From the IMG/VR virus record IMGVR_UViG_3300018080_000100: a stretch of DNA of 34,656 bases; one strand, written 5' to 3'. Below, piece after piece: positions 4,983 to 32,629 of the stretch. Each line of letters begins with the position of its first letter. The stretch's first letter is position 1. The DNA comes from a virus. The notes beneath the pieces were generated by a model. That model had not been told where the DNA came from and made no database searches. It was given only the letters and a program-made list of their open reading frames with translations. Both the position numbers and the translations under genes were made by a program.

Positions 4983-5002
4983 TTTGATCTCATGATCAAA
5001 GT

Positions 5003-8608: not shown

Positions 8609-11600
8609 TCAAGCCCCTACCTTCTCGGTTTTTGGTGGCTTCCCGTACTTCCGATCGATGCCGATGGCATCGCATTCTTCCCACGATAACGTCACACCCC
8701 AGCGGGTGGCGACATCCTGATCGATGCCGAATCTGTAGACCGGGGAGTCGCTGAAAGGGACTCCGTCCAGGTCGCACGCGCGGAACGATACTGCGTCGAC
8801 CATGCACTCTGGCATGATTTCGTTGTATACCGTGTCCAAGCTGCGTATTGGAACCTCCAGGATGACAGCGTCATGGATCTGGAGTACGATCTTGTAACCA
8901 AGTTCCGCTTTACGCGGATGGTTGTATAGATAGAACAGCGCGGTACTGACCGCGTCGGCTACCATACTCTGGAACGGGAAGTTCAGGAACTGGCGCTCCA
9001 GCTCTCCCATCGCTCCACGATCGCTGGTGGTGATACACCGGCGATAACGTCCGAAACAGTTACGAATCCAACCAGGCTTCGCCACCCGGGCCCTCAACTG
9101 TTCTTGCAGTATTGGGATTCCCGGGTAGGTGGCGAAGATCGTATTGATAATCTGCTGAGCTTCAGCCTCGACGATGGGTGCGCCTTCTTCTTGGCACTGG
9201 CGCGCACAGGCTTCTGCTGTGCGGCCGTATCCCACGCCGAAGATGATGTTCTTAGCAGCCACACGCTTGCCCTTCTGTCCAATGCCTGCAAGGCCCGCTT
9301 TCGTGGGTTCACAGTCTAGTCGGAACGATTGAACAGCAATATTCGAGTGGATATCGTACTGGTTGGGGTCGTCATCCTCCAAATTGGCCCTCAGGCAGTG
9401 ATCAAGCATGGTTTTGTCGCGAGACATTACTGCCATACCCAACAACTCGGCGCCTTTATAATCCGCCTCTAGCAGAACGGTGGTTTCGCCGTAGTTGGGG
9501 TCAGTATTGCTCACGATAAACGAACGGATAGGCCATGTGTAACGCTCGCCCAGAATCTTGCGGTAGTCGTCTTCTCTTCGCTTGCTGATGTTCTGGAGTG
9601 GCGGCCTAGCCGATGATGCACGACCTGTTTCCTTCACTTGCTGGAAGGAACTACGCACACGCGAGTCATGGCAGGCATACTTTGCGATGCCTCCCCCGTA
9701 GATCCTCCGGCCAAGTTCGTCCAGTTGCAATTGGTTCTTAACCATTTTTGGCGGACGAAAGACCGATTTAAGGACCTGGTCGATCAAGCGCACATTCCGT
9801 AGTTGGCGTGCAAAAGCATGCTGTGCTCCGAGGATTCCACAGACTTCTTTATCGGTAGATGGTGCCCATTGGTCCTGCTCTCCGCGAGACTCCACCCATG
9901 CCCACGGCTTACCCTTGCCCGTCGTCTTGATGGGCTTGAGGTTCAGCGTGAGCGCGCCTTTCGGACGTACGCTGACGCGCTCGCCCGTTGTCTTGTCGCG
10001 CTTGGTGGAATACTTCTCGCCGAACAGGAACTCGACGCACTGTTGGCTGCTGCGCGGGTTGAAGCCCGGCCAGTTGATGTCCTGGCGCAGCTTCTCCAAG
10101 TGCTCGACGCTGATCGACTGGAAGAGGTCCGTTAGCGCATCCACGCGCTCCAGATCTATCTTCACCCCTTCCATACCCATCTCGCAGAAAGCCGGGAAGG
10201 CCATCATGGAGATGTGGAACGGGACCCAGCAGTCATTGCCGAAGCGGTCGCCATCGAGCAGCTTGCAGTGCACGTCCATGAGCTGACGCGTGTAGGCAGC
10301 GTCCTTGCCGCCATACGGGATGAGGATCTCGTCGGGACACTCGCCGTATCCTTCCAGCTCCTCATCCTTCATCTTGTGTTCGTGTAGGTAGTTACGCTTC
10401 CACTCCTGTAGCTTGACGTCCCAGCGATCTGCACCGCAGAGCCGTGTTGCCATGACCTCCAGCTTGAAATCACCGGTCTCGTTGTACGCGTGGTGCGCCA
10501 ACGCCACGTCGAAGCCGCCGGCGTAGTCACCGCCACGGATGTCCTCGACGTTCTCGGGCACACGGAATCGGTGCGCGATCTTCAAACCGTTGTATTCCAA
10601 CCACGGAAGGTCGGCGGAGAAGAAGCTTCCGCCGATCTGCACATCGTCACGATCGAGCAGCCTGTTAAGCTGGTTGATCGCTGACTGGATGCCGGGACGG
10701 AACGCGTGCGCGCCGCCCTGGTTGCGCAGAACGATGACGGCGGCGTATTCGCCGTGGTGGCTGATCTGGATGGTACGCAGGTACGAGCCGGGCTCGCCTG
10801 GGTGCTGTCCGTGCCACTCGCCGTCGACTCCGATCTTCTTGATCCCAGGCTGTGCCAGAATGTAGTCGACCAGCTCAGCCAGGTCACGCTCTTTGTAGAA
10901 CGTCTGGATCGTAATCGTTTCGTCGGAACTTGCCGTGAACTCTTCGCCGCGAATCAACTTCGTGAAGTTGCGGCATGTCGCCTCAAACTGCGGATACAGC
11001 TCAGTCGTCCTGAGCACTGCCGCCGGATGGACTACCGCCATTACCTTAGGCTTATGGATTATGGGCGCCTGGCCCGCCTCGTCCTGCAGCGGCACATCGA
11101 TCTCGATGTAGCGGCCGATCATGTTACTGACGGTATGGCCTGGGCCACATACGGCCTTGGTAGCTTCTGCTCCAAGGCACAGGATGTAGTCCGGCCGTAC
11201 CAGACGCAGCTCCTGATGCAGCAGCGGCAGGCAGTCTTTGATCCATGCCTGCGGCAGCGCCGAGCTGTTAGAACTGAACTGCTGCCAGCGCACGAGATTG
11301 GTGACATACCAGTCGTCCATCTCAGTGGTAGACAAGCCATGCCGCTCGAACGTCTCGCGCAGCTGGCATCCTGAGGGCCCAACGAAGTTGCGCCCTGCTG
11401 TTGTCTCCTCCATACCAGGCATCTTGCCAACGATCATCACGCGCGGCACATTGTGCTTCTGCACGTATTCGTCGTCGAGATACTTGGGACCATCAGCGGG
11501 ACCGCCCCACAGGTGGCCAGGCACGATGCGTACAGTCTCCTGCCGGCCCTTCAAATTGACGGGCAGGTCGAAGTCGTTGCTGTACAGGCACCGCAGGTAA

Positions 11601-11830
11601 AGGCACTGCAACATGAACCCGACGGATACGACACGTTTGTCCTTGCCGGTGCCCTCTGTCTGCACCGGATTGTCGTCACCGAGGGCACGTGCGTGCTCCA
11701 CGAAGTTCACGCCCGCAGGCGGCATACCCGGTGCTATCAACGGATACATCGCATAGCGCTGCGCGAACGAGTTGTTTGGGTCGCCCCGGAAGATCGCTTC
11801 CAGGTCGTCCACAGAAAGTTCAGGAATCAT
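8609..11830 (-). CDS. DNA polymerase, family A (Pol I-like) with N-terminal family-4 UDG-like domain and 3'-5' exonuclease domain (1073 aa)
   Basis: UDG family 4 motifs are present: GKMPGMEETTAGRNFVGPSGCQL and VVHPAAVL. An exonuclease motif IGVDGEW follows. Pol A motif B (KRVAAKNIIFGVGYG) and motif C (LQIHDAVILEV) are present. The ATG at 11830 overlaps the primase stop as ATGA. Confidence 0.9.
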   Translation of the reverse strand: MIPELSVDDLEAIFRGDPNNSFAQRYAMYPLIAPGMPPAGVNFVEHARALGDDNPVQTEGTGKDKRVVSVGFMLQCLYLRCLYSNDFDLPVNLKGRQETVRIVPGHLWGGPADGPKYLDDEYVQKHNVPRVMIVGKMPGMEETTAGRNFVGPSGCQLRETFERHGLSTTEMDDWYVTNLVRWQQFSSNSSALPQAWIKDCLPLLHQELRLVRPDYILCLGAEATKAVCGPGHTVSNMIGRYIEIDVPLQDEAGQAPIIHKPKVMAVVHPAAVLRTTELYPQFEATCRNFTKLIRGEEFTASSDETITIQTFYKERDLAELVDYILAQPGIKKIGVDGEWHGQHPGEPGSYLRTIQISHHGEYAAVIVLRNQGGAHAFRPGIQSAINQLNRLLDRDDVQIGGSFFSADLPWLEYNGLKIAHRFRVPENVEDIRGGDYAGGFDVALAHHAYNETGDFKLEVMATRLCGADRWDVKLQEWKRNYLHEHKMKDEELEGYGECPDEILIPYGGKDAAYTRQLMDVHCKLLDGDRFGNDCWVPFHISMMAFPAFCEMGMEGVKIDLERVDALTDLFQSISVEHLEKLRQDINWPGFNPRSSQQCVEFLFGEKYSTKRDKTTGERVSVRPKGALTLNLKPIKTTGKGKPWAWVESRGEQDQWAPSTDKEVCGILGAQHAFARQLRNVRLIDQVLKSVFRPPKMVKNQLQLDELGRRIYGGGIAKYACHDSRVRSSFQQVKETGRASSARPPLQNISKRREDDYRKILGERYTWPIRSFIVSNTDPNYGETTVLLEADYKGAELLGMAVMSRDKTMLDHCLRANLEDDDPNQYDIHSNIAVQSFRLDCEPTKAGLAGIGQKGKRVAAKNIIFGVGYGRTAEACARQCQEEGAPIVEAEAQQIINTIFATYPGIPILQEQLRARVAKPGWIRNCFGRYRRCITTSDRGAMGELERQFLNFPFQSMVADAVSTALFYLYNHPRKAELGYKIVLQIHDAVILEVPIRSLDTVYNEIMPECMVDAVSFRACDLDGVPFSDSPVYRFGIDQDVATRWGVTLSWEECDAIGIDRKYGKPPKTEKVGA

Positions 11831-14619: not shown

Positions 14620-15321
14620 TTAGGGGGCAAACATTAGGATGCCTGTAGCCTCGTCTTTCAGTACCTTCGGTATCATGGCACCCCACGTCCGGCTGTAGCC
14701 TATCGGGTCCATCAAGAACTGCGTCAAAGCAGCAGCCCTATGCGCACGCTCTGCCTCGTGCAACTGCTCCGAATGTGCAATGCAGTATCGGTACAGCGCG
14801 GGCAGCTCGTACATTTTGTTCATGAGAACAAAATTCCAAAGCTGCTGGTCCGTGTAGTCAGGGAAGGCGTTAGCTGCCTCGCCCACACAGCATTCGAACT
14901 CCAGCTGGTATGACTGCAGTGCTTGCAGCATGCTGTTGTCGGCACGCTTGTTGTAATCCAGGTAGCGCTTCAACGCCTTCGGACCCTTGAACGTCGTCGG
15001 GTTTGGTGCTACCGAAAGCGTCTCGTCCGCCGGCACGCTGTATCTGTACTGGACGTGGATGAACCGCTCGAAATTGCTGATGTCTGCCCGTATCAGCGTC
15101 CGTGCGAGGTCCATCCAGACAGGCGTAACATGCCGCGGGCGCGACATTGCCACTGACTGGCCGTCGACTTGCATCTCGCGCACTTGGCGCTCGCGCATAT
15201 TGGCCAAAGCCAGCCGATGCGCAGCAATGTACGTCGGGTCTTGTACTGTCGGCAGCTCTTCGGCCTCCTCAGGTGGAGGAGCCTGCATCTGCGCAGCACG
15301 TGGTGGATTAGAATCCGGCAC
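14620..15321 (-). CDS. hypothetical protein (about 233 aa)
   Basis: Track ORF. A GTG start at 15321 has a GAGGA SD 6 nt upstream. It overlaps the SF2 helicase stop by 14 nt. Confidence 0.55.
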   Translation of the reverse strand: MPDSNPPRAAQMQAPPPEEAEELPTVQDPTYIAAHRLALANMRERQVREMQVDGQSVAMSRPRHVTPVWMDLARTLIRADISNFERFIHVQYRYSVPADETLSVAPNPTTFKGPKALKRYLDYNKRADNSMLQALQSYQLEFECCVGEAANAFPDYTDQQLWNFVLMNKMYELPALYRYCIAHSEQLHEAERAHRAAALTQFLMDPIGYSRTWGAMIPKVLKDEATGILMFAP

Positions 15322-16849: not shown

Positions 16850-16869
16850 TTTTACCCGTAGTGCTGGTA

Positions 16870-16898
16870 TTGACAGCGGACGTACGGGGAGATAGGAT
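16870..16898 (+). promoter_or_regulatory. sigma70-like promoter: TTGACA - 17 nt - TAGGAT
   Basis: A perfect -35 hexamer at 16870-16875 and a 4/6 -10 hexamer at 16893-16898 sit on the plus strand inside an otherwise minus-strand block. It reads toward the intrinsic terminator at 16952-16987. Confidence 0.35.
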
Positions 16899-16904
16899 CA
16901 GACA

Positions 16905-16987
16905 ATTGAACCGCCTGACCGACCATATCCCCGTGTGGTCGCGAATCACTTGGAGCCCCGTTCCCGCGGGGCTCCTTTTTTGTTTGT
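16905..16987 (+). ncRNA. candidate small non-coding RNA (~80 nt), promoter-to-terminator unit
   Basis: It is bounded by the promoter above and by a canonical Rho-independent terminator. It contains no ATG. It did not fold as a tRNA cloverleaf when inspected by hand. Confidence 0.3.
16952..16987 (+). terminator. Rho-independent terminator: GGAGCCCCG-ttcccg-CGGGGCTCC followed by TTTTTTTGTTTG
   Basis: A 9 bp perfect GC-rich stem is followed by a 7-T run on the plus strand only. The minus strand has no T-run, so it is unidirectional. Confidence 0.7.
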
Positions 16988-17177
16988 ATGCCGGCGAGCG
17001 CCGGTCTTTCGACAACAAGAGCCGCATGACGCACACGCGTCACACGGCCGCAGCGCTGTCCAGTTTAGGCATCCTAGCTCTCCACAAGATGGCTGTCAAC
17101 GGCGGTCTTGGCGGTATGCACTGGTTCCTACATTTTGTACCGCGCACGGCTGGAATACACCATATATGCGGGTCAAA

Positions 17178-18212
17178 TCAGATCATGTTTGTTGCGATCT
17201 GGTGCAGCTCGTACGCTGCCTTCTCCGTCTGGTGATGGAAGAAGTCCGTCGGACGGAATAGCGGGCACTGCTGCTCAGGTGTCGCAGCGGATTCACGATA
17301 CAGCTCGCTCAGCCACGTGTGGCGGAGGAACGCGATAAACCGCTGCGAGCCCCGCAAATCAGCCATGACTGGATCGCCCTCGGGCGCGTTCGGATCGCCT
17401 AGGCCAAGCTTGCGGCCCCATGTCCTCCAGCAGAAATCCCACGGGGCCATGCCCACCAGGTCGCTGCCCTCGACAGGATGCGGCGCGCCAAGCTCATAGC
17501 GATAGCGCACCTTCTGCTCGGCTGCTCTGTTCTTCCAGCAGTTCAGCACGACCTTGCAGCGTTTGTGGTGCCGCCACGGTTCGCGTGTGCCGTACACGCC
17601 GGCCTGCGTTCGTGGGTTCAAGCCCAGCCACGCTTCCAGCTTGCCGAGACGATCTGGTGCGCACTGGTCTATGTACCAGCGCGGGTCCAGTATGTACGAC
17701 AGCAGTCCTGCCACCGACAGTTTGTTGAGTGACTGGATGAACGATAGCGGACGCCACGCAGGATGGCCACGCAGCAGCTGCAAGACATCCACCTCAACTT
17801 CTTCGCCGTGGAGCACACTCTTCGACAGTGCGACTGCCAGGGCATAGGAGCGATAGTCGGACTCGACGACTTCGTGGAAACCACCCAAGCTGGGCGCTCG
17901 TGTGAAATCCCGCATAGCCAACAACATAGCTTCGGGGTTACGGCGATGCTTTTCAATACGCCCGACCAATGGCGTGCATACCTGCACGCTTTGCAGCTTG
18001 TCTTTCTGTTTGAGGTCGTACAACTGCGTGATCAATCTGGCGTTAGCGCACGTGCCTACTAACTGCACGCTATCCGCGCGCGTGAAGGCAGCGCTCTCGA
18101 GAAACGCTTCTGGAGACTCGCCAGAGCATCGCGTGGCGTAGTCTCCGTCGGCATACCAGATCTTTCCGCAGTGCGTATGCAGTTTCATTGTCAATGTGTC
18201 GATCGCTCTCAT
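17178..18212 (-). CDS. hypothetical protein (344 aa)
   Basis: The ATG at 18212 overlaps the sbcC-like stop as ATGA, indicating translational coupling. Composition is protein-like. No recognisable motif. Confidence 0.65.
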   Translation of the reverse strand: MRAIDTLTMKLHTHCGKIWYADGDYATRCSGESPEAFLESAAFTRADSVQLVGTCANARLITQLYDLKQKDKLQSVQVCTPLVGRIEKHRRNPEAMLLAMRDFTRAPSLGGFHEVVESDYRSYALAVALSKSVLHGEEVEVDVLQLLRGHPAWRPLSFIQSLNKLSVAGLLSYILDPRWYIDQCAPDRLGKLEAWLGLNPRTQAGVYGTREPWRHHKRCKVVLNCWKNRAAEQKVRYRYELGAPHPVEGSDLVGMAPWDFCWRTWGRKLGLGDPNAPEGDPVMADLRGSQRFIAFLRHTWLSELYRESAATPEQQCPLFRPTDFFHHQTEKAAYELHQIATNMI

Positions 18213-20344
18213 GCAGCTGGCAGTTCGATTGTGTTGTCAAAATGGTGCGATATCCGCGGTTCGTGTGTAACGAACAGCACCTGCAGCCCGCGCTCATGCG
18301 ACAGGTCACGCAGGCGCTCCAGCGCACGCGGCAAGCTGTCGAGGTTGTGCTCGTCCAGGCCTGCTGTGGGCTCGTCCATAATCAGTACACCAACCTGACC
18401 CGCGAAGGTCGAATTGACGGTGATCCGAAATGCCATCGCAAGTACGATGCGCTCGCCGATCGATAGTCGTCGGTCGGGCTGCACCCGCACGCCGTCAAGG
18501 AACCTGGCTGTGAAACCTAGGCTCTCGTCCATCTCCACGCGGAAAGGCGCTTCGAACATGGAGAGCGCTTCGTTCACCTGTTCTAGCATCATTTCCACGT
18601 AGGTGTAGGACACCATCCGCGGCGCTTCGTTGCGATGAAACACGCTACGCACGTCGGTCAGGTGCTGCACTACCTCACGGGTCTTCTGTCCTTGAGCCAA
18701 CGTCTTGCGAACGTTCTCAATCTGCTCTTGGACAGCAACGCGCTTTGCGTGTGCAAGCGCACGCTCGCGTGTAAACTGCTCCAGTTGCCGTTGCTTGGCC
18801 AGTATATCGGCGTTGGCTGCTTGCGCCTCGTCATGCTGCGCCTTGGTGTGCCACGGCTGTAACGCGTTGTGGGCGTCCTGGGCCTGCTGCAGCGCCTCAG
18901 CGAGCTGCTTACACTCGCCTTCCAGTGAGGACAGCTGCAGGGCCTTACTGGTCTTCTCAGCTTGAACCTGCTGCAAAGCTTCCTGGAAATGCGAACGCTC
19001 GTTCAGCGTCTTTTGAACTTCCTCTTCGGAGGTCTCGGGCGGGCTACACGCTTCGATCGCCAGACGTCGTCCTTCCAGCTGACGCTGGTCAGACGCCTTG
19101 TGCTTCATCTGCACGATGTATGCAGAGTCAGCCCTGTCATACACGTCCCACGTGTCCCTCCGCAGCCGTAGCGGCGGCATCTGCGCCTGTATCGCCGCCA
19201 GCTCGTCCTCCAACTCGGCCTTGCGCTGGGCGCGCTCGTTCGCGCCGGGCATCTTCTGGCCGCATGTAGGACAGGTATCCGCCTGGCCCATGTCCAGCAG
19301 ATTGATACGAATATTACCACACGTATCTTCGAGGTACTTCAGCTGCTGCGCCTCCTCGTCGCTCAGGCGTGGCTCTGGTGGCTGCACCGGCGCGACTGTG
19401 TTCTCCCACGTAGCTTTGAACGTAGCTTCGTCACGCTCAAGTGCAGCCCGCGTGGCTGCAGCAGCATGGTGGGCTTTCCACTGATCGCGTGCCTCCTCGG
19501 CGTCTGCACAGTCCGGCGCAATCGCGGCTAGCCCAGCTTCAAGGTCGGCTATTGCGGCGTCCAAGTCACGTAGCGGTTCAGCCGCCGCTTTGGCTGCAGC
19601 CTCTTTGGCAGTGTACCGCCCCTGCAGCTCTTCGACGCGCGCCATCGCCTGGCGTTCGTCGTTGTACTGCTGGATCAACGTCTGGTTGGCATGCAGCTCA
19701 GTCTCCGGATGCTCTGGCAGCTCCAGCGCAGCAATGTTGGCGTCCGCACCGGCGATAGCCTCGTCGTGCGTAGCCGCTTGATCATTCAGCTCGTCCTCCG
19801 TCAGCAGCGACGTCGGAATCTCGATGGCGCTGACGAACTTACCCAGCTGCTCGTACACGCGCTCGGCGTGCGCCACGCCGAACAGTGCCGCCAAGGAAGC
19901 GGCCCGCTCTGCCGGCGGTTGGTCAAACATCTCGTCGATCTTGCGCTGGCGCACAAAGATGTAGTCGGCGATCTGCTTCTTGGTGGCGCCCAGTCTGCCC
20001 CACAGTTCGGAATTGATCTCGCCTACCGACGTCCACCGCGCATCGTCGATGGTCAGCAGATTGGTAGTACCCTGCAAAGCACGACGGACATGCATCCGCG
20101 CGCCGTAGTGTATCAACCAAGCTTCGACGAAGGCTTCTGCGTTACCTGGCGTACCCTGACGGATATCGTCGGCCTTCTTGCGCTCACCGCCGGCGTCGCC
20201 GATCAGTGCAAGCTGTATGGCGCGCAAGATGTTGGTCTTACCAGCGCCGTTCGGGCCAACGAGCATGTTGAGCCCAGGAGTCAGCTCGAGAGTTAGATCC
20301 TCGTGCTGGCAGAAATTCGCTAGGTGGAGTCGTTCTATGATCAT
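18209..20344 (-). CDS. SbcC / Rad50-like SMC-family ATPase (phage gp46-like recombination nuclease subunit)
   Basis: The N-terminal Walker A is LVGPNGAGKTNIL. A long coiled-coil carries a central CPTC zinc hook. The C-terminal signature and Walker B are GERIVLAMAF...LIMDEPTAGLD. Confidence 0.85.
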   Translation of the reverse strand: MIIERLHLANFCQHEDLTLELTPGLNMLVGPNGAGKTNILRAIQLALIGDAGGERKKADDIRQGTPGNAEAFVEAWLIHYGARMHVRRALQGTTNLLTIDDARWTSVGEINSELWGRLGATKKQIADYIFVRQRKIDEMFDQPPAERAASLAALFGVAHAERVYEQLGKFVSAIEIPTSLLTEDELNDQAATHDEAIAGADANIAALELPEHPETELHANQTLIQQYNDERQAMARVEELQGRYTAKEAAAKAAAEPLRDLDAAIADLEAGLAAIAPDCADAEEARDQWKAHHAAAATRAALERDEATFKATWENTVAPVQPPEPRLSDEEAQQLKYLEDTCGNIRINLLDMGQADTCPTCGQKMPGANERAQRKAELEDELAAIQAQMPPLRLRRDTWDVYDRADSAYIVQMKHKASDQRQLEGRRLAIEACSPPETSEEEVQKTLNERSHFQEALQQVQAEKTSKALQLSSLEGECKQLAEALQQAQDAHNALQPWHTKAQHDEAQAANADILAKQRQLEQFTRERALAHAKRVAVQEQIENVRKTLAQGQKTREVVQHLTDVRSVFHRNEAPRMVSYTYVEMMLEQVNEALSMFEAPFRVEMDESLGFTARFLDGVRVQPDRRLSIGERIVLAMAFRITVNSTFAGQVGVLIMDEPTAGLDEHNLDSLPRALERLRDLSHERGLQVLFVTHEPRISHHFDNTIELPAA

Positions 20345-21100
20345 TTACTTTCCATTGCGCTGGCGTGCGCGGGTTGTGTCTACTTTCCTGCTGGCACGCG
20401 TTTCGTCATGGTCAAGTTCGAATATGTCGAGGGCGCCGCGGATCTCGGACCAGATCTTCTGCAGCTGCCCGTGGGAGCCACAGCCGGCGATTTGGTCCTC
20501 GAACAGCGCTACATCGTCTTCCAGCTTCTTGAGCTTCTTGCCGACGGGGTCTTCGCGGATGAGCGCCGTCAGTTGGCGCTTGCAGTGATCCCGCATTATG
20601 TTTGTCGCAGTGCCGGGATAGCGGTCGAAGGTGCCCTCGTCCTCGTCCTCGTCCTCGTTGCTGTGGTAGCGCCGATAGTTGTTGCGGCGATTGACATGGC
20701 TTTGCTGCATGTCGGCCGATGGCAGGTCGGCGCGCTTACGCCCCTGCATCTTCTCGACTACGCCACCTTCCAATTCGCGGATCGCTGTATCGAGCTTGTC
20801 GCGCTCTTCACGCAGGTCTTCCAGATCGACCATCATGTTTTCGACGCCAAAGTGCTCCTCGATGAGCCTCTGGGCCTCTACTACCAAGTCGCGTTTCCAA
20901 GTCGGCTTTTCGGCCTGAATCTGGTCGCGCAATTCCTGGGCACGGCTATCCAGCCGGTCCCGAAAGTGTTGCTTCTCGCTTACTGTCAGTCCCATAAAGT
21001 CGGTCTTTGTATATTCGAAGTAATTCTGTTTGGATGTCACGTGTTCCTGCCAAGCTGACGGCGTCTTCGCAGACGGCTGTAGGCTCAGCGTAGAACTCAC
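20345..21100 (-). CDS. hypothetical acidic protein (EDEDEDE stretch, coiled-coil character) between the sbcD-like and sbcC-like genes
   Basis: Track ORF. The start is uncertain (ATG at 21100 or 20995). The 5' end overlaps the 3' end of the sbcD-like gene. Confidence 0.5.
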   Translation of the reverse strand: MSSTLSLQPSAKTPSAWQEHVTSKQNYFEYTKTDFMGLTVSEKQHFRDRLDSRAQELRDQIQAEKPTWKRDLVVEAQRLIEEHFGVENMMVDLEDLREERDKLDTAIRELEGGVVEKMQGRKRADLPSADMQQSHVNRRNNYRRYHSNEDEDEDEGTFDRYPGTATNIMRDHCKRQLTALIREDPVGKKLKKLEDDVALFEDQIAGCGSHGQLQKIWSEIRGALDIFELDHDETRASRKVDTTRARQRNGK

Positions 21101-22085
21101 GGATGCAGCCGGCTAGGCCGTCGTTCAGCACTACCTGAACGCGCCGCGCCGTATCGACTGCAACCTGCGCACTCTCCACAGGTACCGCCTTGAGGAACAG
21201 GTGCGCATCGCCTGTGACACGCGCCTCTATCCGCTCTCTGGCCTCCGGAACATCTTCCCTGTACCAGACACGGATTATGTTCGCAGACACGGACGCCGGA
21301 ACGCCCACCTTCGGTATCCTCGCAGGATGCTGCCGCCAGCTGTCAATGAAAGCGTCCAGGTCTTCCTGGTCATTGATTCTGGCTTCGTAGTAGCCGCGTG
21401 TATGCAGCTGCACAGCCTCGGCCGTCAGATCGTCGTTCAGTATGAAAACGTTCTTTGTATGCGGCTCGCCGATATTCTGCATGCAGATCGATCCAGGCGA
21501 GATGATGCGCTGTTGTCCGCGCGTCTCGTCGATCGTCACATGGAAATCGCCGGTGAGGATGCAACGTGGAGACTTGGCCCAATGGAACCATGCGTCTCCG
21601 CGATCTTCGCCCATGAAGTCCATCCACACCTGGTGTGTGGCTAGGATATCGACGCCTTCCGGAACTGCCTCCAGCGCGGCGCGTACTTCATTGGGTGACT
21701 TGTAGTCCAGTCCGTAGATCCGGAGTCCAGTGCCTGGTATTTCCACCAGCTGCTCGTTGATATGCAGCGGATGTAGATGTAAGGCATGCAACAACGGCGG
21801 TGTTGACCGCTCGTGCTGGCCCTGCACGTACAGTACCTTGCGACCCTGCTGCTGGAACGTATCCAACGCCGAGCGCATCGTCTGCAGCGCATCCGATTGC
21901 TGTAGCTTCTGCTCGAATAGGTCGCCGAGCAGGATCACGTACGGAACATCATACGTATCCGCTATCTCGCAGATCTGTTTGATGCTCCACGCCGTATCCC
22001 CGCATAGGGTGTCCCGGCGGCTCCAAACACGGTCGTGTTTGCGCACATGCCAGTCTCCAGTTGCGAGCGCAATCGGCTTAGCCAT
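20946..22085 (-). CDS. SbcD / Mre11-like metallophosphoesterase nuclease (phage gp47-like)
   Basis: Phosphoesterase motifs are present in order: GDWH, LLGDLFE, GQHE, TGDFH. A CAGGAGATCAAAATT SD/spacer precedes the ATG at 22085. Confidence 0.85.
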   Translation of the reverse strand: MAKPIALATGDWHVRKHDRVWSRRDTLCGDTAWSIKQICEIADTYDVPYVILLGDLFEQKLQQSDALQTMRSALDTFQQQGRKVLYVQGQHERSTPPLLHALHLHPLHINEQLVEIPGTGLRIYGLDYKSPNEVRAALEAVPEGVDILATHQVWMDFMGEDRGDAWFHWAKSPRCILTGDFHVTIDETRGQQRIISPGSICMQNIGEPHTKNVFILNDDLTAEAVQLHTRGYYEARINDQEDLDAFIDSWRQHPARIPKVGVPASVSANIIRVWYREDVPEARERIEARVTGDAHLFLKAVPVESAQVAVDTARRVQVVLNDGLAGCIREFYAEPTAVCEDAVSLAGTRDIQTELLRIYKDRLYGTDSKREATLSGPAG

Positions 22086-22467
22086 AATTTTGATCTCCTG
22101 AACAAAGTTCGGGGTCGAGTGTCATCATGAAATGGTAGAAGGCCTCCGGGGGCAGCACCGGGTCATCGAAGTCGATGACATCCGGATCGCGCACCCGAAA
22201 CAGATTTCCGTGCTGGTCCATGACCATTACGCTAGCAGTGCCTTCAACCAGGAGCGTCTTCATGCTGAGCAGGAAGGCGTCACCTACGGGCACCAACGCA
22301 CGTGCCTTAGCCATGATAACATCGACAGGTAGCGATTCCCAGAAGCCCGAACCGTACAGTACGCGTTCGTATTGTGGCGTCTGGAGCATGTCCATCAGGA
22401 GCAGCATCGCCCGGCAATCCACTGCCAAGGCGTCCTCGTACATTTGCTTGAAATGCTCTTGTCCCAT
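22078..22467 (-). CDS. hypothetical protein (129 aa)
   Basis: Track ORF. It is the first gene of the minus-strand unit, directly abutting the divergent csrA promoter region. It overlaps the sbcD-like start by 8 nt. Confidence 0.55.
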   Translation of the reverse strand: MGQEHFKQMYEDALAVDCRAMLLLMDMLQTPQYERVLYGSGFWESLPVDVIMAKARALVPVGDAFLLSMKTLLVEGTASVMVMDQHGNLFRVRDPDVIDFDDPVLPPEAFYHFMMTLDPELCSGDQNYG

Positions 22468-22469
22468 GG

Positions 22470-22498
22470 TTGCCTCGTTTGGGCGAAAAGGGTATACT
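22470..22498 (+). promoter_or_regulatory. sigma70-like promoter for csrA: TTGCCT - 17 nt - TATACT
   Basis: Hexamers lie at 22470-22475 and 22493-22498. They are followed by a ~30 nt leader carrying the AAGGAAGGAG SD. Confidence 0.4.
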
Positions 22499-22527
22499 TA
22501 AAGTATCACCATCAAGGAAGGAGACTG

Positions 22528-22707
22528 ATGATGCTGGTTCTTTCTCGCAAGACCGGTCAAAGAATACTGATCGGTGACGACATCACTGTTACGCTAGTAC
22601 GCGTCGACGGTGACACGGTGCGTATCGGTATCGAGGCGCCTGAGACTGTGCGGATTCTCCGCGAAGAGCTCAAAAAGAAGCAACCTCGACAACCTGTAGC
22701 GCATTAG
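22528..22707 (+). CDS. csrA: carbon storage regulator CsrA/RsmA family RNA-binding protein (59 aa)
   Basis: The sequence MMLVLSRKTGQRILIGDDITVTLVRVDGDTVRIGIEAPETVRILREELKK aligns residue-for-residue with E. coli CsrA ([47 protein letters not shown]). An AAGGAAGGAG SD lies 5 nt upstream. The longer track ORF start (22372) is rejected. It is the only clear plus-strand gene in 32 kb. Confidence 0.9.
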   Translation: MMLVLSRKTGQRILIGDDITVTLVRVDGDTVRIGIEAPETVRILREELKKKQPRQPVAH

Positions 22708-22996
22708 CGATATCCGCAAAGAGTCGCTTCTTAGCGCATACTGCCAGCTTATGGGCCTGGGACACGCTCACGCAACGCACTGATTCGCGCTGCCCTGCTG
22801 CCTGTCCACGGCCCGAGGCTGGCCAGTAGTCCGCCAGGTGTTTATCGCCGTACTTGAAACGCCAATGCTGGTCGTTGTCGCTCAGCGTGACAGTGATCTG
22901 CTCGAAGGCAAGCTCGCTCTGGAGCATTTCCAGTTCAGCTGTTGCTGACTGGAGCCGCTGTTTGCGGATCTGCTTCTTCTTGCTCATCTGCTGCAC
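22670..22996 (-). CDS. hypothetical protein (108 aa), doubtful
   Basis: Track ORF convergent with csrA, overlapping its 3' end by 38 nt and the HldE-like stop by ~60 nt. No SD was checked. Its composition is Gln/Lys-rich. Confidence 0.3.
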   Translation of the reverse strand: MQQMSKKKQIRKQRLQSATAELEMLQSELAFEQITVTLSDNDQHWRFKYGDKHLADYWPASGRGQAAGQRESVRCVSVSQAHKLAVCAKKRLFADIANALQVVEVASF

Positions 22997-24428
22997 AGGC
23001 TTTCGCGCGGATGTCGGTCGCGTGCGTATCGAACTCGAGCGTCGTCGTCATGATACGGCCGCCGACCTCCTCCATCGTCAGCGCTTCTGGAATCCGATCG
23101 GTCTTGCCGGCGTGCTCGGGGCCCTTGAACAGGACCGTCGGTACCAGATTGTGGATAAGTGACTTGGGTGTGTCTTCGTCGAACTTGATGATCGCATCGA
23201 CGCACGGTAGCGCTGCCAAACTCGCGGCACGCGTGGCGTAGTCGTTGATCGGCTTGCTCTTGATGCGGGCGGCCGACTCGTCCGAATTCAACATGACGAG
23301 TAGGAAATCGCACTCTTTGCGCGCCTGCTCCAGCATGGAGACATGCCCAGGATGCATCAGATCGAAAACACCGTTGGCTACGCCGAAGTCGCCGCCGCTG
23401 ACCATCATGGATGCGCGCAGCAGCATAGCAAAAGGCAGCTCTATCTTCTTGAGCTGATTGCCAGATACAATGGTCAGCCGCCTGTGTATCTGGTGCAGTG
23501 ACACCGCGGATGCGCCAGGGCGCTCTACCTGTATCGCTGCGGCCGTTGCTGCAAAGTGCAACATGGGCATCAAAGACATATCGGCAGCGACGCCATAGGT
23601 GAACGCTGCAGCAACAGTGTCGCCAGCACCGCACGAGTCGACCGCTAGTGCTGGCACAGCTGGCATCTCGGACGGCGTCTCGTTCGGGCGCACTATGAGC
23701 ATACCGGCAGCGCCACGCGTCACGATGCAATGCACAGCGTGCAGTTCCTTGCAGACCGCCATAGCCGCCGAGCGTACGTCAGCAATCCGCGGGTCGGCGA
23801 CTGCCGCAAGCACCTCATGCTCATTGGGCGTAATGATATGCGCACCACGATAGTGAAGCATATGCTTCGGCGTCGGGTCTACGACCACCGGTACTTTGTG
23901 TGCGCGCGCATACTCGAAGATGACCTGGAGCGTACGCTCCGTGCAAATACCTTTGTCGTAGTCGGACACAAGGATCGCAAGTGGTTTCGCGTCGTCGACA
24001 CACTTCATGAACATGTCGACCACCTTGTCCTCGACATTGGCCTTCGGGCGTGCGTCTATGTCGAAGCGAGCTACCAGACTGTCAGCTGCGTACACGCGGT
24101 GTTTGCAGGGCGTTTGGTAGTTCTTATCCGTGGCTACATACCGCGTCAGCAGCTCCGGTAGTTCCATGTTCAAGAAGTTCCGGCCGGCGGTGTCATCGCC
24201 TACGACGCTTACGAACGCCGTGGGCATCGCCATATGTACGAGATTGGCCATCGCGTTGGCGGCACCGCCCAAGCCAAGGAAGGGCGTACCAGGTGGCACG
24301 TCTATGACGGGAACTGCAGCGGTTTGGTCAAGCTGCTTCACCGTTCCCATGTAGTAGTGGTCCATAAGCACAGGTCCGACTACGACCACGCGGTCGCCTT
24401 CATCCTGTGCTGGGTGATTCGTCGTCAA
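22935..24428 (-). CDS. bifunctional PfkB-family sugar kinase / cytidylyltransferase-like nucleotidyltransferase (HldE/RfaE-like, D-beta-D-heptose 7-phosphate kinase / heptose 1-phosphate adenylyltransferase architecture)
   Basis: The N-terminal ribokinase-like domain has a GAGD anion-hole motif (DSCGAGDTVAAAF). The C-terminal domain carries the (T/H)xGH nucleotidyltransferase motif (GVFDLMHPGHVSMLEQARK). The start is TTG at 24428 with a GGAGAG SD 6 nt upstream. Confidence 0.8.
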   Translation of the reverse strand: MTTNHPAQDEGDRVVVVGPVLMDHYYMGTVKQLDQTAAVPVIDVPPGTPFLGLGGAANAMANLVHMAMPTAFVSVVGDDTAGRNFLNMELPELLTRYVATDKNYQTPCKHRVYAADSLVARFDIDARPKANVEDKVVDMFMKCVDDAKPLAILVSDYDKGICTERTLQVIFEYARAHKVPVVVDPTPKHMLHYRGAHIITPNEHEVLAAVADPRIADVRSAAMAVCKELHAVHCIVTRGAAGMLIVRPNETPSEMPAVPALAVDSCGAGDTVAAAFTYGVAADMSLMPMLHFAATAAAIQVERPGASAVSLHQIHRRLTIVSGNQLKKIELPFAMLLRASMMVSGGDFGVANGVFDLMHPGHVSMLEQARKECDFLLVMLNSDESAARIKSKPINDYATRAASLAALPCVDAIIKFDEDTPKSLIHNLVPTVLFKGPEHAGKTDRIPEALTMEEVGGRIMTTTLEFDTHATDIRAKACAADEQEEADPQTAAPVSNS

Positions 24429-24627
24429 TACTGCTCTCCGCTGTGACTGAGTCTGGATCTAGTGATACACGTCGCAGCCCACTGACTGCCACGGGCTTTG
24501 ATGTGCATGTAGGGCAAATACGGTTACCAGCATGTTGCGACGCAAACGTCGTGCCACAGCGCAAACAGCGCCGCGGCTTAGCTGCTAATCTGTCATCCGC
24601 CCTGGGTTTTGCCATTTGTGGCTCCAA
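24400..24627 (-). CDS. small zinc-ribbon protein (CLRCG...CPTC), 75 aa
   Basis: A CxxC-18-CxxC arrangement is present. The start abuts the stop of the upstream gene at 24628. It overlaps the HldE-like start by 29 nt. Confidence 0.5.
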   Translation of the reverse strand: MEPQMAKPRADDRLAAKPRRCLRCGTTFASQHAGNRICPTCTSKPVAVSGLRRVSLDPDSVTAESSIDDESPSTG

Positions 24628-25299
24628 TCAGACCGTGCTCGGCACCAACCTGACGACCTTGTACGTGCCATCAGGATACGGAAACACGAAGTCTTCGTCC
24701 AGACGTTTGCACGGCGGCAGTGATGGATTTGGCACAGTGGGGTGCACACCCTCCTGAAGGATAAGAAAAGCGTCGATGTAGGCGCCGCCGTCCGCTGGTG
24801 CCGCGTTTACGATCGCAATCGCGGCTACTGCTCCGTCGGCAAATGTGTGGTACCAGCCTCCAGCAATATCGCCGGGCGCCGCTACGTTACTCTCGAACCC
24901 GAGGCCTCGTCCAAGGATATCCGTGTACGTGGCCATCTCGGCTTGCGGCACGACCAACCGGGCCGTGTCGTAGCCTATGCGTTCGTAGAGCACACCATCT
25001 GCTAACAGAGGCACAAGCTTCTTGAGGCTTGCGCGAGCCAGATTGCGATCGAAGAACGCCTCCATGCACGCCACCTCGCTACCTTTGGGCATCTCTGCCG
25101 TAGCGGGCGGGGCTGTGGCCGACAACGGTGTCGTCAGCTCTTCGTCAAAACTAGTGATGAACGTCTCGAAGTCTTCCTGACTCGTATGATCGATCACTCG
25201 TAACAGCGCCAGCTGGTCGTCAGCTGACAGCTTATGCTTGTCGGTGAGCGCGAGTATGCGCTCAGCAGGAGTTAGATTTGACACGTTTGAAGTATCCAA
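24628..25299 (-). CDS. hypothetical protein (about 223 aa)
   Basis: Track ORF. The track start is TTG and the exact start is unresolved. Composition is protein-like. Confidence 0.5.
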   Translation of the reverse strand: MDTSNVSNLTPAERILALTDKHKLSADDQLALLRVIDHTSQEDFETFITSFDEELTTPLSATAPPATAEMPKGSEVACMEAFFDRNLARASLKKLVPLLADGVLYERIGYDTARLVVPQAEMATYTDILGRGLGFESNVAAPGDIAGGWYHTFADGAVAAIAIVNAAPADGGAYIDAFLILQEGVHPTVPNPSLPPCKRLDEDFVFPYPDGTYKVVRLVPSTV

Positions 25300-26092
25300 A
25301 TGGGAGTCTGAATCGCTTGCACCGGATGCTATTCAGGAACGTGGCCATGACAGCCGGGTCGCTCCGAAGCCATCCGGGCGGATATTTGAAAATACCTCCG
25401 ATCAGCTTTGCGATCGTGAAGTCGCGCGGACGCTTGACGACCCGGAACGAGTCGCCGAGGTCTGCGTTCCAACCTGCTGGCATTACTGCCACGCAGCTGT
25501 GCATTCGCAGCCACCGGCCGCAGCTACCGTCCTTTGCCGTGGCCTTATAGACCAGCGGAGACAACGTGTACCAGTAGAAGCCGCCAAGGGCGTCCTTCAT
25601 GTACTTGTCGCGGAACTGCTTCGGAAACCAGCGCTCCGTCATGAACACTTCGTCAAGGCTGGTGGTCAGCCCACCATCCGCGTCGAAGTAAATGTCCCGA
25701 TGCTCCGTGCAGGTGTGCCGGTAGGTCACCAGCGTCGCCTTCCTGCGGCGTACCAGGTCACTCACCTTAGTGTAGATACTGCTGACACGCCTGGAGAAGC
25801 ACCAAGGACAGATGATTAGATTACACGTGGTTGTCCACGGGTCGACGTGGACGCAGCACACCGGGCAGTTGTGCGCGAAGACGAGCTTGCTGGTGCTGAT
25901 CTGCGCCCATTCATGCCGCGCAAGCTCTGCGCAGCGCATACGCCAGATCCCTCGCGCCTCCTGCAGCTTCGGTATGAGCCCATAGGGATAGGGCTTAACC
26001 TCGCCTACGATCGGCGCGACGGTTGAAAGATATTCACACAGCATCCGCGGGGATTCTGATGGAATACTCAGCTTGGCATCAATCGTCCTCAT
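25262..26092 (-). CDS. hypothetical Cys/His-rich protein (276 aa; multiple CPxC, CxxC pairs)
   Basis: Track ORF with the ATG at 26092. It overlaps the upstream stop by 14 nt. It is a possible zinc-binding protein. Confidence 0.6.
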   Translation of the reverse strand: MRTIDAKLSIPSESPRMLCEYLSTVAPIVGEVKPYPYGLIPKLQEARGIWRMRCAELARHEWAQISTSKLVFAHNCPVCCVHVDPWTTTCNLIICPWCFSRRVSSIYTKVSDLVRRRKATLVTYRHTCTEHRDIYFDADGGLTTSLDEVFMTERWFPKQFRDKYMKDALGGFYWYTLSPLVYKATAKDGSCGRWLRMHSCVAVMPAGWNADLGDSFRVVKRPRDFTIAKLIGGIFKYPPGWLRSDPAVMATFLNSIRCKRFRLPFGYFKRVKSNSC

Positions 26093-26423
26093 CCACGTCG
26101 TCCGTGACCTCTGGTGCGCCCGTTAAGAACGGTCGGATTACGATATCGTCGAGTTCGTCTACCGCGTGGCGCACCTCCGCAAGTGAACCGCCTGCGAAAA
26201 CTACTTCACGCGCATCGTGATCCCAGGCCAGATAAACCTCTTCGCCTGGGCAGTTGAGATCTTCGCAAAGCCTATCGATTTGCTCGAGAGACATCACCGT
26301 GATCTCTGCCATTTGCACGACCCCGTCTAGCAGGATCGGCCCCGTCTCCTCCAACGCCCGCTGGAGCATCCTAAGTCCGGTTAGGATGTGTGCTAGGCCT
26401 TGGTCATCCACCTCCAGTAACAT
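26079..26423 (-). CDS. hypothetical protein with acidic C-terminus (114 aa)
   Basis: The preferred start is the ATG at 26423 (MLLEVDDQG), with a GGAGGA SD 6 nt upstream. The track start is at 26456. Confidence 0.6.
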   Translation of the reverse strand: MLLEVDDQGLAHILTGLRMLQRALEETGPILLDGVVQMAEITVMSLEQIDRLCEDLNCPGEEVYLAWDHDAREVVFAGGSLAEVRHAVDELDDIVIRPFLTGAPEVTDDVDEDD

Positions 26424-26616
26424 TGGTATCCTCCAATGGACGCGCCCTGTCAACACCCTTCAGGGACAGCCTGAAGAAGCGTAAGAGTTCGCTGTCCTCC
26501 AAATGTCCCTTCCAGTACGCGTCCTTTATCCAGTTGCGTAGCTGTTCAGCGGGAATGTCGTCCAGCCAGTTAACAAATTGTTCCATCGACGCCGCGCGTG
26601 CGGGATCTATTGGCAT
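26404..26616 (-). CDS. small hypothetical protein (70 aa)
   Basis: An AAGGAG SD lies 7 nt upstream of the ATG at 26616. It is the first gene after the terminator at 26632-26663. Confidence 0.45.
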   Translation of the reverse strand: MPIDPARAASMEQFVNWLDDIPAEQLRNWIKDAYWKGHLEDSELLRFFRLSLKGVDRARPLEDTNVTGGG

Positions 26617-26631
26617 GTGTGGCTCCTTAGC

Positions 26632-26663
26632 AAAAAACCCCGGGCGCCCGAAGGCGCCCAGGG
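26632..26663 (-). terminator. Rho-independent terminator (minus strand): CCCTGGGCGCC-ttcg-GGCGCCCGGGG followed by TTTTTT
   Basis: The plus strand reads AAAAAA CCCCGGGCGCC cgaa GGCGCCCAGGG. A 7+3 bp GC stem with a 4-nt loop is followed by a 6-T run in the minus sense. It lies immediately downstream of the stop of gene 26677..27381. Confidence 0.7.
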
Positions 26664-27436: not shown

Positions 27437-27733
27437 TCACCAGTGATACTGGCGAAGGAAATCGCAGATCGGGCCGTCGGCGTCGATCCGCACGAAATCT
27501 ATCTCGTGGCTGTGCGCCACAGACAGTATGTGTCCCACCGAGGGACTGAAGCCAAAGTCGTTAAGGGTCTCTAGGATGCCGTCGCCGAAATCGTCCGGTA
27601 CACCAACCCAGAAACCCTCAGGGTATTCCTCTACACCTAGATCTGCACACTGGCCTAGCGCATTCGCGTCTTCGGCAGTGATATGACAGGTGTTGATCGT
27701 CCAGAGTCGACGAATATCTAGCGGTTCGGTCAT
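27437..27733 (-). CDS. hypothetical acidic protein (98 aa)
   Basis: The ATG at 27733 overlaps the stop of the pilin-like gene as ATGA. Confidence 0.5.
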   Translation of the reverse strand: MTEPLDIRRLWTINTCHITAEDANALGQCADLGVEEYPEGFWVGVPDDFGDGILETLNDFGFSPSVGHILSVAHSHEIDFVRIDADGPICDFLRQYHW

Positions 27734-28155
27734 TGCATTAGCTCCCGTACCGCATCTTCGTCGCGCGAATCGACGTCGATCTCAGTCACTGTGCCGTTCG
27801 CAATGTCGTTCGACATCACGGACAAGAGGCGCCCCCTGGGAGCTACATTGCCTTCATACTGTATAATTCCCTGAATTTGCGCTGCCTTGAGGCGTACTTT
27901 GCGCACCTGCGCTACAAGCGAAAGACAATCAGCGTCAGCCGCCTTCACATAGAAATGGTGCCGACTATCGATGACACCTTCCCACTGAGCCTTGGCTGCG
28001 ACATACTGTAAGCGCGTTACCGGACCGAACACTTCCTCGGTACGCGTAGTGTGTCCGACAGAGAACTTGCCGATCGCGCCGACGAGCAGCGAAGCCAATA
28101 TCCCCACGATCGCGATGACTACTAGTAGCTCTACAACGGTAAACGCTCGACGCAT
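27730..28155 (-). CDS. prepilin-type N-terminal cleavage/methylation domain protein (type IV pilin / pseudopilin-like), 141 aa
   Basis: The N-terminus MRRAFTVVELLVVIAIVGILASLLVGA matches the class III signal peptide / N-methylation motif ([G/A]F-T-hh-E-hhhhhhh...). An AAGGAGG SD lies 7 nt upstream. Confidence 0.75.
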   Translation of the reverse strand: MRRAFTVVELLVVIAIVGILASLLVGAIGKFSVGHTTRTEEVFGPVTRLQYVAAKAQWEGVIDSRHHFYVKAADADCLSLVAQVRKVRLKAAQIQGIIQYEGNVAPRGRLLSVMSNDIANGTVTEIDVDSRDEDAVRELMQ

Positions 28156-28282
28156 TTGGAGCCTCCTTTTTGCTCATGAGATCAAGATTGAAACTACCCA
28201 GCCTGCCTATCCTCGCTGAAGCCCGTGGAATCTCGAGACAGCGAGGTGTGGTTGAGTGTACTTGTAACCTGTTGTCCGACAA

Positions 28283-28361
28283 GGACTTAGGTCAACACCC
28301 CTCGAATGGCGGTTAGCTCTTAGAAAATGTATATCTAAGTCCTCATTACATTCGGACTTAG
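28283..28361. repeat. three copies of the octamer GGACTTAG: direct copies at 28283-28290 and 28354-28361, and an inverted copy (CTAAGTCC) at 28335-28342
   Basis: Seen directly in the 290 nt AT-richer non-coding region between the membrane-protein gene and the pilin-like operon. It is a candidate operator/promoter region for the pilin-like operon. Confidence 0.4.
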
Positions 28362-28446
28362 AAACCCGCCTCGGCCGGATATTCTATCCGTCCTTCTCCG
28401 GGGTGGTAGTTTTGAAGACTATTTGGGGGTATCGGAGAAATAGGTA

Positions 28447-29774: not shown

Positions 29775-29804
29775 ATTTTGTTCTCCTGATCAAAATTGGC
29801 CGCG

Positions 29805-32514: not shown

Positions 32515-32629
32515 GGGTTCCTCCTAAATTTTAGAAATGCACCTTTGCGATCCCACGCAAATATGGTAGACTTTTAATATCGTGCAAGTGTGGCACGACG
32601 TCAGTTTCCAGTTCAGCATAGGAATCGTA
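32515..32629. promoter_or_regulatory. divergent promoter region (strand switch), locally AT-rich: TAAATTTTAGAAATG...TATGGTAGACTTTTAATATCG
   Basis: It is the only place where coding switches from minus to plus. It holds several TATAAT-like hexamers (TATGGT, TTTAAT, TAATAT) and a visible drop in GC. Confidence 0.4.

Follow-up and report, generated by a model that had tools for sequence, protein, structure and literature searches.

An inverted csrA gene beside sbcD in the replication and recombination module of an uncultured jumbo phage

General features of the csrA locus

The sequence analysed here (IMG/VR record IMGVR_UViG_3300018080_000100; 34,656 nt, referred to below as the window) was found to carry a phage replication and recombination module, in which a small gene of the CsrA/RsmA family, csrA, is encoded on the opposite strand to its surroundings (Table 1). 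Pfam and PHROG matches identified genes for a family-A DNA polymerase (PolA), a primase, a DnaB-like helicase, a second helicase, a UvsX-like recombinase, SbcC/SbcD-like subunits and Ndk. From approximately position 692 to 32514 all protein-coding genes other than csrA are on the minus strand, with plus-strand genes starting again at 32582. The original prediction had described csrA as the lone plus-strand unit in a block of about 32 kb; it is indeed the only protein gene on that strand, but a candidate small RNA (sRNA) at 16870–16985 may represent a second plus-strand unit.

The csrA open reading frame (ORF) opens with two adjacent ATG codons, at 22528 and 22531, and its stop codon is at 22705–22707. 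The start is more probably 22531, as all homologues begin with MLVLSRK, the public gene call agrees, relatives have a single ATG and the spacing from the Shine-Dalgarno (SD) sequence is 7 nt. The product would consequently be 58 amino acids (aa) long and not 59 aa as originally predicted. An identical 58-aa protein (P0001) has been called on a public 226.5 kb contig of the same phage.

Table 1. Coordinates of csrA and of associated features in the window
Feature	Position	Strand	Details
csrA coding sequence	22531..22707	+	58 aa plus stop; alternative ATG at 22528 gives 59 aa
Predicted sigma70-type promoter, TTGCCT-17-TATACT	22470..22498	+	-35 at 22470-75, -10 at 22493-98; 9/12 match
Predicted csrA leader	22505..22530	+	~26 nt; SD AAGGAAGGAG at 22514-22523; GGA at 22516-18 and 22520-22
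csrA/orf105 3'-to-3' overlap	22670..22707	both	38 nt
orf105	22670..22987	-	Convergent to csrA; conserved, 33-64% identity in relatives
orf129	22078..22467	-	Divergent from csrA, 63 nt start to start
sbcD (SbcD/gp47-like nuclease subunit)	20946..22085	-	Metallophos_2 match; 42 homologues
Putative main-strand transcription unit	17020..26653	-	Bracketed by terminator-like sites 26653-26638 and 17049-17020
sbcD initiation hairpin, UUGUUC-AGGA-GAUCAA	22090..22105	-	SD GGA in tetraloop; candidate CsrA operator
ndk initiation hairpin, UUGAUC-AGGA-GAACAA	29778..29793	-	Same family; GGA in loop
Hairpin family TTGWTC-N4-GAWCAA	4984-4999, 14816-14831, 22090-22105, 28170-28185, 29778-29793	-	5 copies against 0.13 expected

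Identity of the csrA product

It is essentially certain that this is a true and intact CsrA/RsmA-family gene in a phage. In a search with the Pfam CsrA profile (PF02599; cut-off 27 bits), residues 2–51 of the 59-aa version matched profile positions 1–50 of 53 with 82.3 bits (E 2.4e-23), confirming the CsrA homology that had been proposed from inspection of the plus strand. The PHROGs match was to a "CsrA-like regulator" (E 3.9e-17), and the Protein Data Bank (PDB) sequences of bacterial RsmE, RsmA and CsrA could be aligned over residues 1–50 without a gap (E ~1e-12). In an alignment with 40 homologues, the invariant residues M1, L2, V3, L4, S5, R6, R11, I14 and G15 are all found in the phage protein, with T21, V23, V30, R31, G33, I34, A36, P37, R44 and E46 also kept. 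Mutagenesis of Escherichia coli CsrA has located the RNA-contact residues in strands beta1 and beta5, namely L2, L4, R6, R/K7, V40, V/I42, R44 and I/L47. All of these are present in the phage protein, as judged by its alignment with RsmE, CsrA and the 40 homologues.

The predicted structure is in agreement with this assignment. An AlphaFold2 (AF2) model of the monomer had a predicted local distance difference test (pLDDT) score of 79.7, and its top 15 PDB matches were CsrA, RsmA or RsmE throughout, with template-modelling (TM) scores of 0.64–0.69 and root-mean-square deviations (rmsd) of 1.3–1.9 Å over 44–45 residues (typically TM ~0.68 and 1.4 Å), the exception being the nuclear magnetic resonance (NMR) entry 1y00 (TM 0.52, rmsd 3.1). 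The N- and C-terminal elements of the model have lower confidence, as would be anticipated when a strand-swapped dimer is modelled as a single chain. The C-terminal tail of the protein is short, its total length of 58 aa comparing with 61–80 aa in most homologues.

The ratio of nonsynonymous to synonymous substitution (dN/dS) of csrA was 0.1–0.3 for the pairs that could be aligned; the coding sequence is under purifying selection. The G+C content at third codon positions (GC3) is 0.54, compared with 0.60–0.81 in most neighbouring genes.

Transcription signals and neighbouring genes

The predicted sigma70-type promoter ahead of csrA would place the transcription start near 22505. Of the promoter as originally proposed, the element and its location stand, and its support comes from this position and its conservation in relatives and not from its match score. 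A promoter-like element with a -10 hexamer ending 29–40 nt ahead of the ATG was present in 14 of the 17 distinct csrA loci compared, with a sequence that varies by locus (for example TTGATT-17-TATATT, TTGAAA-17-TAGAGT, TTGAAG-16-TACAAT and TTGGAC-17-TATAAT). The csrA promoters scored higher than random 100-mers of the same loci (Fisher combined p ~4e-11) and higher than the regions upstream of main-strand genes (mean 6.24 vs 5.26, Mann-Whitney p 1.5e-7), p values that are generous in that related loci were treated as independent; the positional constancy of the element is the stronger argument. A short leader and a strong SD sequence were found at all csrA loci, and all 17 distinct loci keep the strong SD together with every family-invariant CsrA residue. 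The very strong SD sequence reported for the window, AAGGAAGGAG with its two GGA motifs, was likewise confirmed. The comparison among relatives gives good support for a phage CsrA that is functional and independently transcribed.

Autoregulation through the GGA motifs of the leader had also been suggested. Two such motifs are indeed present, but a double GGA occurs in only three of the 17 distinct leaders, no hairpin is conserved, and any SD sequence contains GGA, which makes this a weak argument. A possible weak hairpin, in which CAUCA (22510–22514) pairs with UGAUG (22526–22530) so that both GGA motifs lie in the loop, was not significant (z = -0.76) and was not conserved in relatives.

The neighbours of csrA, orf105 and orf129, gave no Pfam or PHROG match. 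Both had been regarded as convergent with csrA; this is correct for orf105, with which csrA shares a 3' overlap, but orf129 is divergent. On the main-strand mRNA orf129 lies downstream of orf105, and the gap of 202 nt between them is the antisense of csrA. An overlap of the csrA 3' end with the convergent gene, by 4–66 nt, is found in 14 of the 17 distinct csrA-positive loci; neither strand then has room for a terminator. Within 21800–23300, a range that includes the stretch from orf105 to orf129, no terminator-like site and no sigma70-like minus-strand promoter was predicted. Promoters of a kind not recognisable here may be in use. According to terminator scans, the main-strand terminator-like sites nearest csrA are those which bracket the unit given in Table 1. 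This unit would correspond to an operon of ~9.6 kb in the order HldE-like gene, orf105, (antisense csrA), orf129, sbcD, sbcC and orf344. As there is no room for a terminator and none is predicted, the operon would have to be read antisense through csrA, and the two transcripts would be expected to interfere with each other.

The HldE-like gene (22935..24428, minus strand) encodes a bifunctional protein with a PfkB sugar kinase and a cytidylyltransferase-like domain, the domain pair seen in heptose-7-phosphate kinase/heptose-1-phosphate adenylyltransferase. It is conserved beside csrA and sbcD in most relatives; sugar-nucleotide enzymes of this kind are unusual in the replication modules of phages. 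At the other end of the operon, a gap of 330 nt (16850–17178) separates orf344 from the helicase gene. It contains two identical 10/12 promoters, TTGACA-17-TAGGAT, facing each other (16870–16898 on the plus strand and 17099–17071 on the minus strand). Downstream of the plus-strand promoter at 16870, a strong terminator consisting of GGAGCCCCG...CGGGGCUCC and a run of U is located at 16952–16985. The predicted product is an sRNA of ~80 nt (16870–16985, plus strand), which would be antisense to the 5' untranslated region of the operon for helicase, primase and PolA. An antisense promoter, TTGACA-17-TAGTAT, occurs in the same gap in one relative (L031).

Conservation of csrA in related phages

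Relatives were collected from public assemblies and IMG/VR with the SbcD-like protein as anchor, resulting in 52 loci of which 40 were distinct. Queries of IMG/VR with the single proteins SbcD and Ndk gave no match, and an alignment-based SbcD scan of IMG/VR retrieved the relatives, which are viral genomes of 150–230 kb. A CsrA hidden Markov model detected csrA in 29 of the 52 loci (21 of the 40 distinct), and in every one of the 29 it is oriented opposite to sbcD and lies upstream of it, at a distance of no more than ~1 kb. This arrangement persists where SbcD is only 26–31% identical to that of the window. In other csrA-carrying phages of IMG/VR the orientation of csrA relative to its neighbours is mixed.

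In a neighbour-joining tree of SbcD, most csrA-positive loci fall in one large clade, with two (L047 and L054) in a neighbouring branch. Members without csrA (L036, L039/L040, L045, L046 and L068) are dispersed in the same clade, and in L036, L039/L040 and L045 orf105 and orf129 abut or overlap. The simplest reading of this pattern would be an ancestral csrA followed by several clean losses of a unit of ~200 nt, and csrA has most likely been inherited vertically in an uncultured jumbo phage lineage. The phage copies are about as similar to the CsrAs of Planctomycetota as to each other, which in so short a protein speaks neither for nor against monophyly of the phage CsrAs.

Additional genes were observed around csrA and sbcD in some relatives. 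In two distant relatives, L069 (4218–4955) and L075 (4191–4913), the inverted csrA and sbcD are separated by the gene of a 245-aa protein that contains a sigma-70 region-4 domain, an indication that part of the lineage may have a sigma factor of its own. In one branch (L048) a second inverted gene (4107–4733; 208 aa, no family match) follows csrA on the same strand, resulting in a two-gene antisense unit. L031 has a gene for a D12-class adenine methyltransferase (4583–5605) between orf216 and sbcC, which is absent from the window.

Candidate RNA targets

The original prediction held that several phage genes begin with a near-identical initiation region containing GGA. Such a region is real for sbcD (UUCAGGAGAUCAAAAUUAUG) and ndk (AUCAGGAGAACAAAAUAUG), the sbcD copy having one extra T, but it is limited to these two genes. 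Both form hairpins of a family with five copies in the window, four of them directly before an ATG. The loop is AGGA in sbcD and ndk, and AUGA or UCAU, without GGA, in the other three. The stems of the family contain GATC, and its members could be RNA operators or DNA palindromes. The geometry of an AGGA tetraloop resembles that of high-affinity CsrA ligands from systematic evolution of ligands by exponential enrichment (SELEX) and NMR work; the two AGGA hairpins are weak alone (-3.1 and -3.5 kcal/mol). The family member ahead of 14814 (minus strand) precedes an ATG in frame inside the gene at 14620..15288, which suggests an internal start giving a 64-aa C-terminal product.

Four csrA-positive relatives (L031, L032, L053 and L041) retain the sbcD hairpin, with compensatory changes in its stem, and in csrA-less L040 the hairpin has the loop AUGG. 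It is absent from csrA-less L036 and from csrA-positive L044. In L045 no sbcD start could be assigned, and a scan for the hairpin family found none there. A different element was found in an AT-rich csrA-positive branch, in which the zinc-finger gene (homologue of 24400..24627 of the window) starts with GUG five nt after GCCAC-A(A/U/G)GGAG-GUGGC. This hairpin is GC-rich and conserved (at ~1716 in L057/L063, ~1752 in L064/L066, 3637 in L069 and 942 in L075). In our reading it would fit the published Rsm consensus (A/U)CANGGANG(U/A); it also holds the full SD sequence AAGGAGGUG.

A generic and noisy scan for GGA-loop hairpins at gene starts gave no excess at csrA-positive over csrA-negative loci. 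A collection-wide search for the AGGA hairpin motif was discarded, as its 55 matches are about the number expected by chance on a rough estimate and only those in known relatives are relevant. With regard to antagonists, no Rfam family reached its gathering score and no intergenic A(N)GGA cluster suggestive of a sponge-like sRNA was found in the window, the densest GGA clusters lying inside coding regions. No FliW-like Pfam match was obtained among the window proteins scanned (34.6 kb of ~226 kb), and no fliW gene was found beside csrA in the two loci of Planctomycetota examined. The sbcD, ndk and zinc-finger hairpins are best regarded as candidate sites, that is, as leads and not as evidence of regulation.

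The carrier phage and its probable host

The exact CsrA protein was found on 11 contigs from several samples, the longest of those read being 226,517 bp. No close relative of 6 kb of the window was found by megablast among 50,697 GenBank phage records, and PolA is only ~25% identical to that of T5-like and SP-10 phages. The carrier is an uncultured jumbo phage of ~226.5 kb, and looks like a large phage of the lytic type.

Planctomycetota account for 27 of the best 30 genomic CsrA matches and for about 50 of the best 80, and the bacterial proteins with a species name among the top protein matches, of which there are four, likewise come from this phylum. Identity to the CsrAs of Planctomycetota is 60–76% over the dimer core, with genomic copies reaching ~70% over residues 1–47 and a Thermoguttaceae protein 76%. 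CsrA is prevalent in Planctomycetota (PMC13443453), and the host probably belongs to this phylum.

Two further genes of the window deserve mention. A pilin-like protein of 141 aa with a prepilin-type N-terminal methylation motif is encoded at 27730..28155 (minus strand); its gene adjoins that of a DUF5983 protein (27437..27733, minus strand) and is preceded by a non-coding gap of 291 nt (28156–28446). It fits the proposed host only loosely. PolA (8609..11830, minus strand) has a uracil-DNA-glycosylase-superfamily domain (residues 129–278) N-terminal of its 3'-5' exonuclease and polymerase domains.

Comparison with known CsrA systems

Like the bacterial CsrA, RsmA and RsmE proteins, in particular those of the MLVLSRK type in Planctomycetota and Bacillota, the phage protein is a single domain of ~60 aa with a matching predicted fold. 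It differs from bacterial CsrA in its very short C-terminal tail, in being encoded antisense inside an operon and not at a chromosomal locus, and in that no antagonist (sRNA sponge or FliW) was identified near its gene.

The presence of csrA in a phage is as such already known, from surveys published in 2020 and 2021 and a knock-down of 2025, and novelty had been overstated in this respect. The gene is annotated in at least 80 GenBank phage records, mostly of Pseudomonas and Vibrio phages (40–66 kb among the records listed), and these copies are at most 50% identical to the present protein. Sobrero and Valverde reported 30 csrA-positive phages among 2,517 (PMC7366521), and Campa et al., in a survey of GenBank and IMG/VR, put forward suppression of CRISPR-Cas and host manipulation as functions (PMC8450108). 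Knock-down of a phage csrA resulted in smaller plaques (Adler et al.; PMC11879866). Known examples include the RsmM type of temperate Pseudomonas phages (phi297 and F116), copies in Vibrio, Burkholderia and Providencia phages, and PTXU04_00028. They have in common with the present gene that a CsrA domain is encoded by a tailed phage and is proposed to manipulate host translation. However, the known carriers have genomes of 40–66 kb and many are temperate, whereas the present carrier belongs to a ~226 kb jumbo phage lineage without a cultured relative. In phi297, csrA lies near recombination genes (RecT and a nuclease), as it does here, but it runs in the same direction as the other genes of an early operon and its product has 123 aa. 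In the present lineage csrA is always inverted, equipped with a promoter and terminator-less beside sbcD. What appears to be new is the carrier (an uncultured jumbo phage, probably of Planctomycetota), the inverted terminator-less placement by sbcD fixed throughout the lineage, and the conserved host-type promoter.

Other mobile elements also encode their own CsrA, which can engage in cross-talk with the Csr/Rsm regulon of the host, namely plasmid pQBR103 (RsmQ) and integrative and conjugative elements (ICEs) of Legionella (CsrT) (PMC9928087; PMC7366521). Plasmid-borne RsmQ takes over host translation (PMC9928087). Whereas plasmids and ICEs persist in the cell and tune host behaviour in the long term, the present csrA is found in the replication and recombination module of what appears to be a large phage of the lytic type.

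The original prediction had interpreted csrA as a moron, a concept which comes from the lambdoid phages (Hendrix/Juhala). In keeping with this, csrA is inserted between genes that are adjacent in csrA-less relatives, has its own predicted promoter, is oppositely oriented and has a lower GC3. Unlike morons, it has no terminator and overlaps its neighbour, appears to be ancient and lineage-wide and not a recent addition, and its carrier is not known to be temperate.

Possible role of the phage CsrA

The reading favoured here, to which a probability of roughly 55% is given, is that the phage protein mimics host CsrA, acts on host mRNAs and is gated by convergent transcription. The small dimeric protein would bind GGA motifs at ribosome-binding sites. 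Its mRNA, short and monocistronic, would start at the gene's own host-type sigma70 promoter and carry a very strong SD sequence in a leader of ~26 nt. With overlapping gene ends and no terminator, transcription of csrA and of the operon would collide and yield fully complementary RNAs. This would result in mutual exclusion, with csrA on as long as the operon is silent, most plausibly just after the DNA has entered, and with later read-through from the operon occluding the csrA promoter. As a close mimic of the CsrA of the host lineage, the phage protein would most likely add to or override host CsrA and re-programme the translation of GGA-bearing host mRNAs, such as those of metabolism, motility and defence genes; a few initiation regions of the phage may be further targets. 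The timing, the RNA targets and the direction of regulation are all deduced in this scheme; what the sequences themselves show is an intact CsrA-family gene under purifying selection, with its place, its orientation and a promoter-like element conserved and with no predicted terminator.

A number of points weigh against this reading. None of the present evidence separates host from phage targets, and the host itself was assigned from CsrA similarity alone. The 9/12 promoter match is by itself not above chance, such matches numbering six (5.7 expected) in one half of the window and five (6.6 expected) in the other; the p values obtained from the relatives are, as mentioned, generous, and the -35 hexamer overlaps the ribosome-binding site of orf129 on the other strand. 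Sigma70-like promoters drive other units in the phage lineage too, so that the promoter alone does not mark csrA as an early gene. Finally, csrA is dispensable, as it was lost repeatedly in close relatives.

T4 RegA is a translational repressor of phage origin and provides a functional analogy. The comparison concerns a small phage protein that may bind phage initiation regions, with those of sbcD and ndk as candidate operators, and implies no homology. By this analogy the phage CsrA would mainly repress phage mRNAs through GGA hairpin loops, those of sbcD and ndk and, in the AT-rich branch, of the zinc-finger gene, and would time or limit nuclease and nucleotide-metabolism proteins. This is a possible but clearly less likely explanation than action on the host. 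It would account for the linkage of csrA and sbcD over a very deep divergence, as regulators often lie beside their targets, and it agrees with the AGGA tetraloops closed by C-G at the starts of sbcD and ndk, with the compensatory changes in L031, L032, L053 and L041, with the AUGG loop of csrA-less L040 and the hairpins missing from L036 and not found by the scan in L045, and with the Rsm-like GCCAC-ANGGAG-GUGGC element of the zinc-finger gene. However, three of the five family hairpins are without GGA, so that the family exists independently of CsrA; the AGGA hairpins are of low stability; other csrA-positive clades have a plain SD at sbcD and L044 has no hairpin; and the full AAGGAGGUG in the GCCAC...GUGGC element means that its conservation does not need CsrA. 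The generic scan gave no excess of GGA loops, and the numbers are too small for statistics. A stricter version, in which csrA, a global host regulator domesticated by the phages and driven by host RNA polymerase, and the recombination operon form a built-in timing circuit of mutually exclusive units, with CsrA repressing sbcD and ndk through the AGGA-loop operators and the zinc-finger gene of the AT-rich branch through a perfect CANGGANG hairpin, would make csrA a RegA-like autogenous switch and not a moron for host takeover, and must be considered doubtful.

It is unlikely that the phage CsrA is instead a decoy which titrates host antagonists (sponge sRNAs or FliW) or forms mixed dimers with the host protein, and thereby shifts host CsrA activity. 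Mixed dimers are conceivable at 60–76% identity to Planctomycetota CsrAs over the dimer core, and in Bacillus-type CsrA it is the C-terminal tail that FliW makes use of (PMC13443453), a part which is short in the phage protein (total length 58 aa vs 61–80 aa in most homologues). All RNA-binding residues are nevertheless retained, which a pure decoy would not need, and the two Planctomycetota loci examined have no fliW beside csrA. To our knowledge no sponge RNA has been described for Planctomycetota. Selection could also act on the convergent promoter and the antisense transcript as a cis-acting module, for instance as an attenuator or RNase III site which splits orf105 from orf129, with the protein being secondary. 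The obligate, terminator-less antisense overlap conserved in most loci is in line with this, as is the simple coupling of orf105 and orf129 in csrA-less relatives; but preservation of a CsrA protein at this depth is not expected of an element that acts purely in cis, and the dN/dS values together with the invariant residues and strong SD at all 17 distinct loci make this very improbable. Least credible of all is that csrA is a silent relic or a bacterial gene binned in error, without expression in the phage: its lower GC3 relative to most of its neighbours would suit such an origin, but 21 distinct phage loci have an intact csrA ORF, the gene is under purifying selection, its promoter and SD are conserved, and it is embedded among phage genes on contigs of 150–230 kb.

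Host-directed CsrA mimicry is retained as the working interpretation. So far the functional test of phage csrA genes is confined to one gene, by knock-down, and the csrA leader and the sbcD and ndk hairpins offer concrete RNA candidates for targets of the phage CsrA. The conserved antisense nesting of csrA represents a natural test case for the timing of genes by convergent transcription. If the protein works as proposed, large phages of the little-studied phylum Planctomycetota would hold a post-transcriptional master regulator as a stable part of their core replication and recombination module, and not as a sporadic gene of lysogenic conversion.

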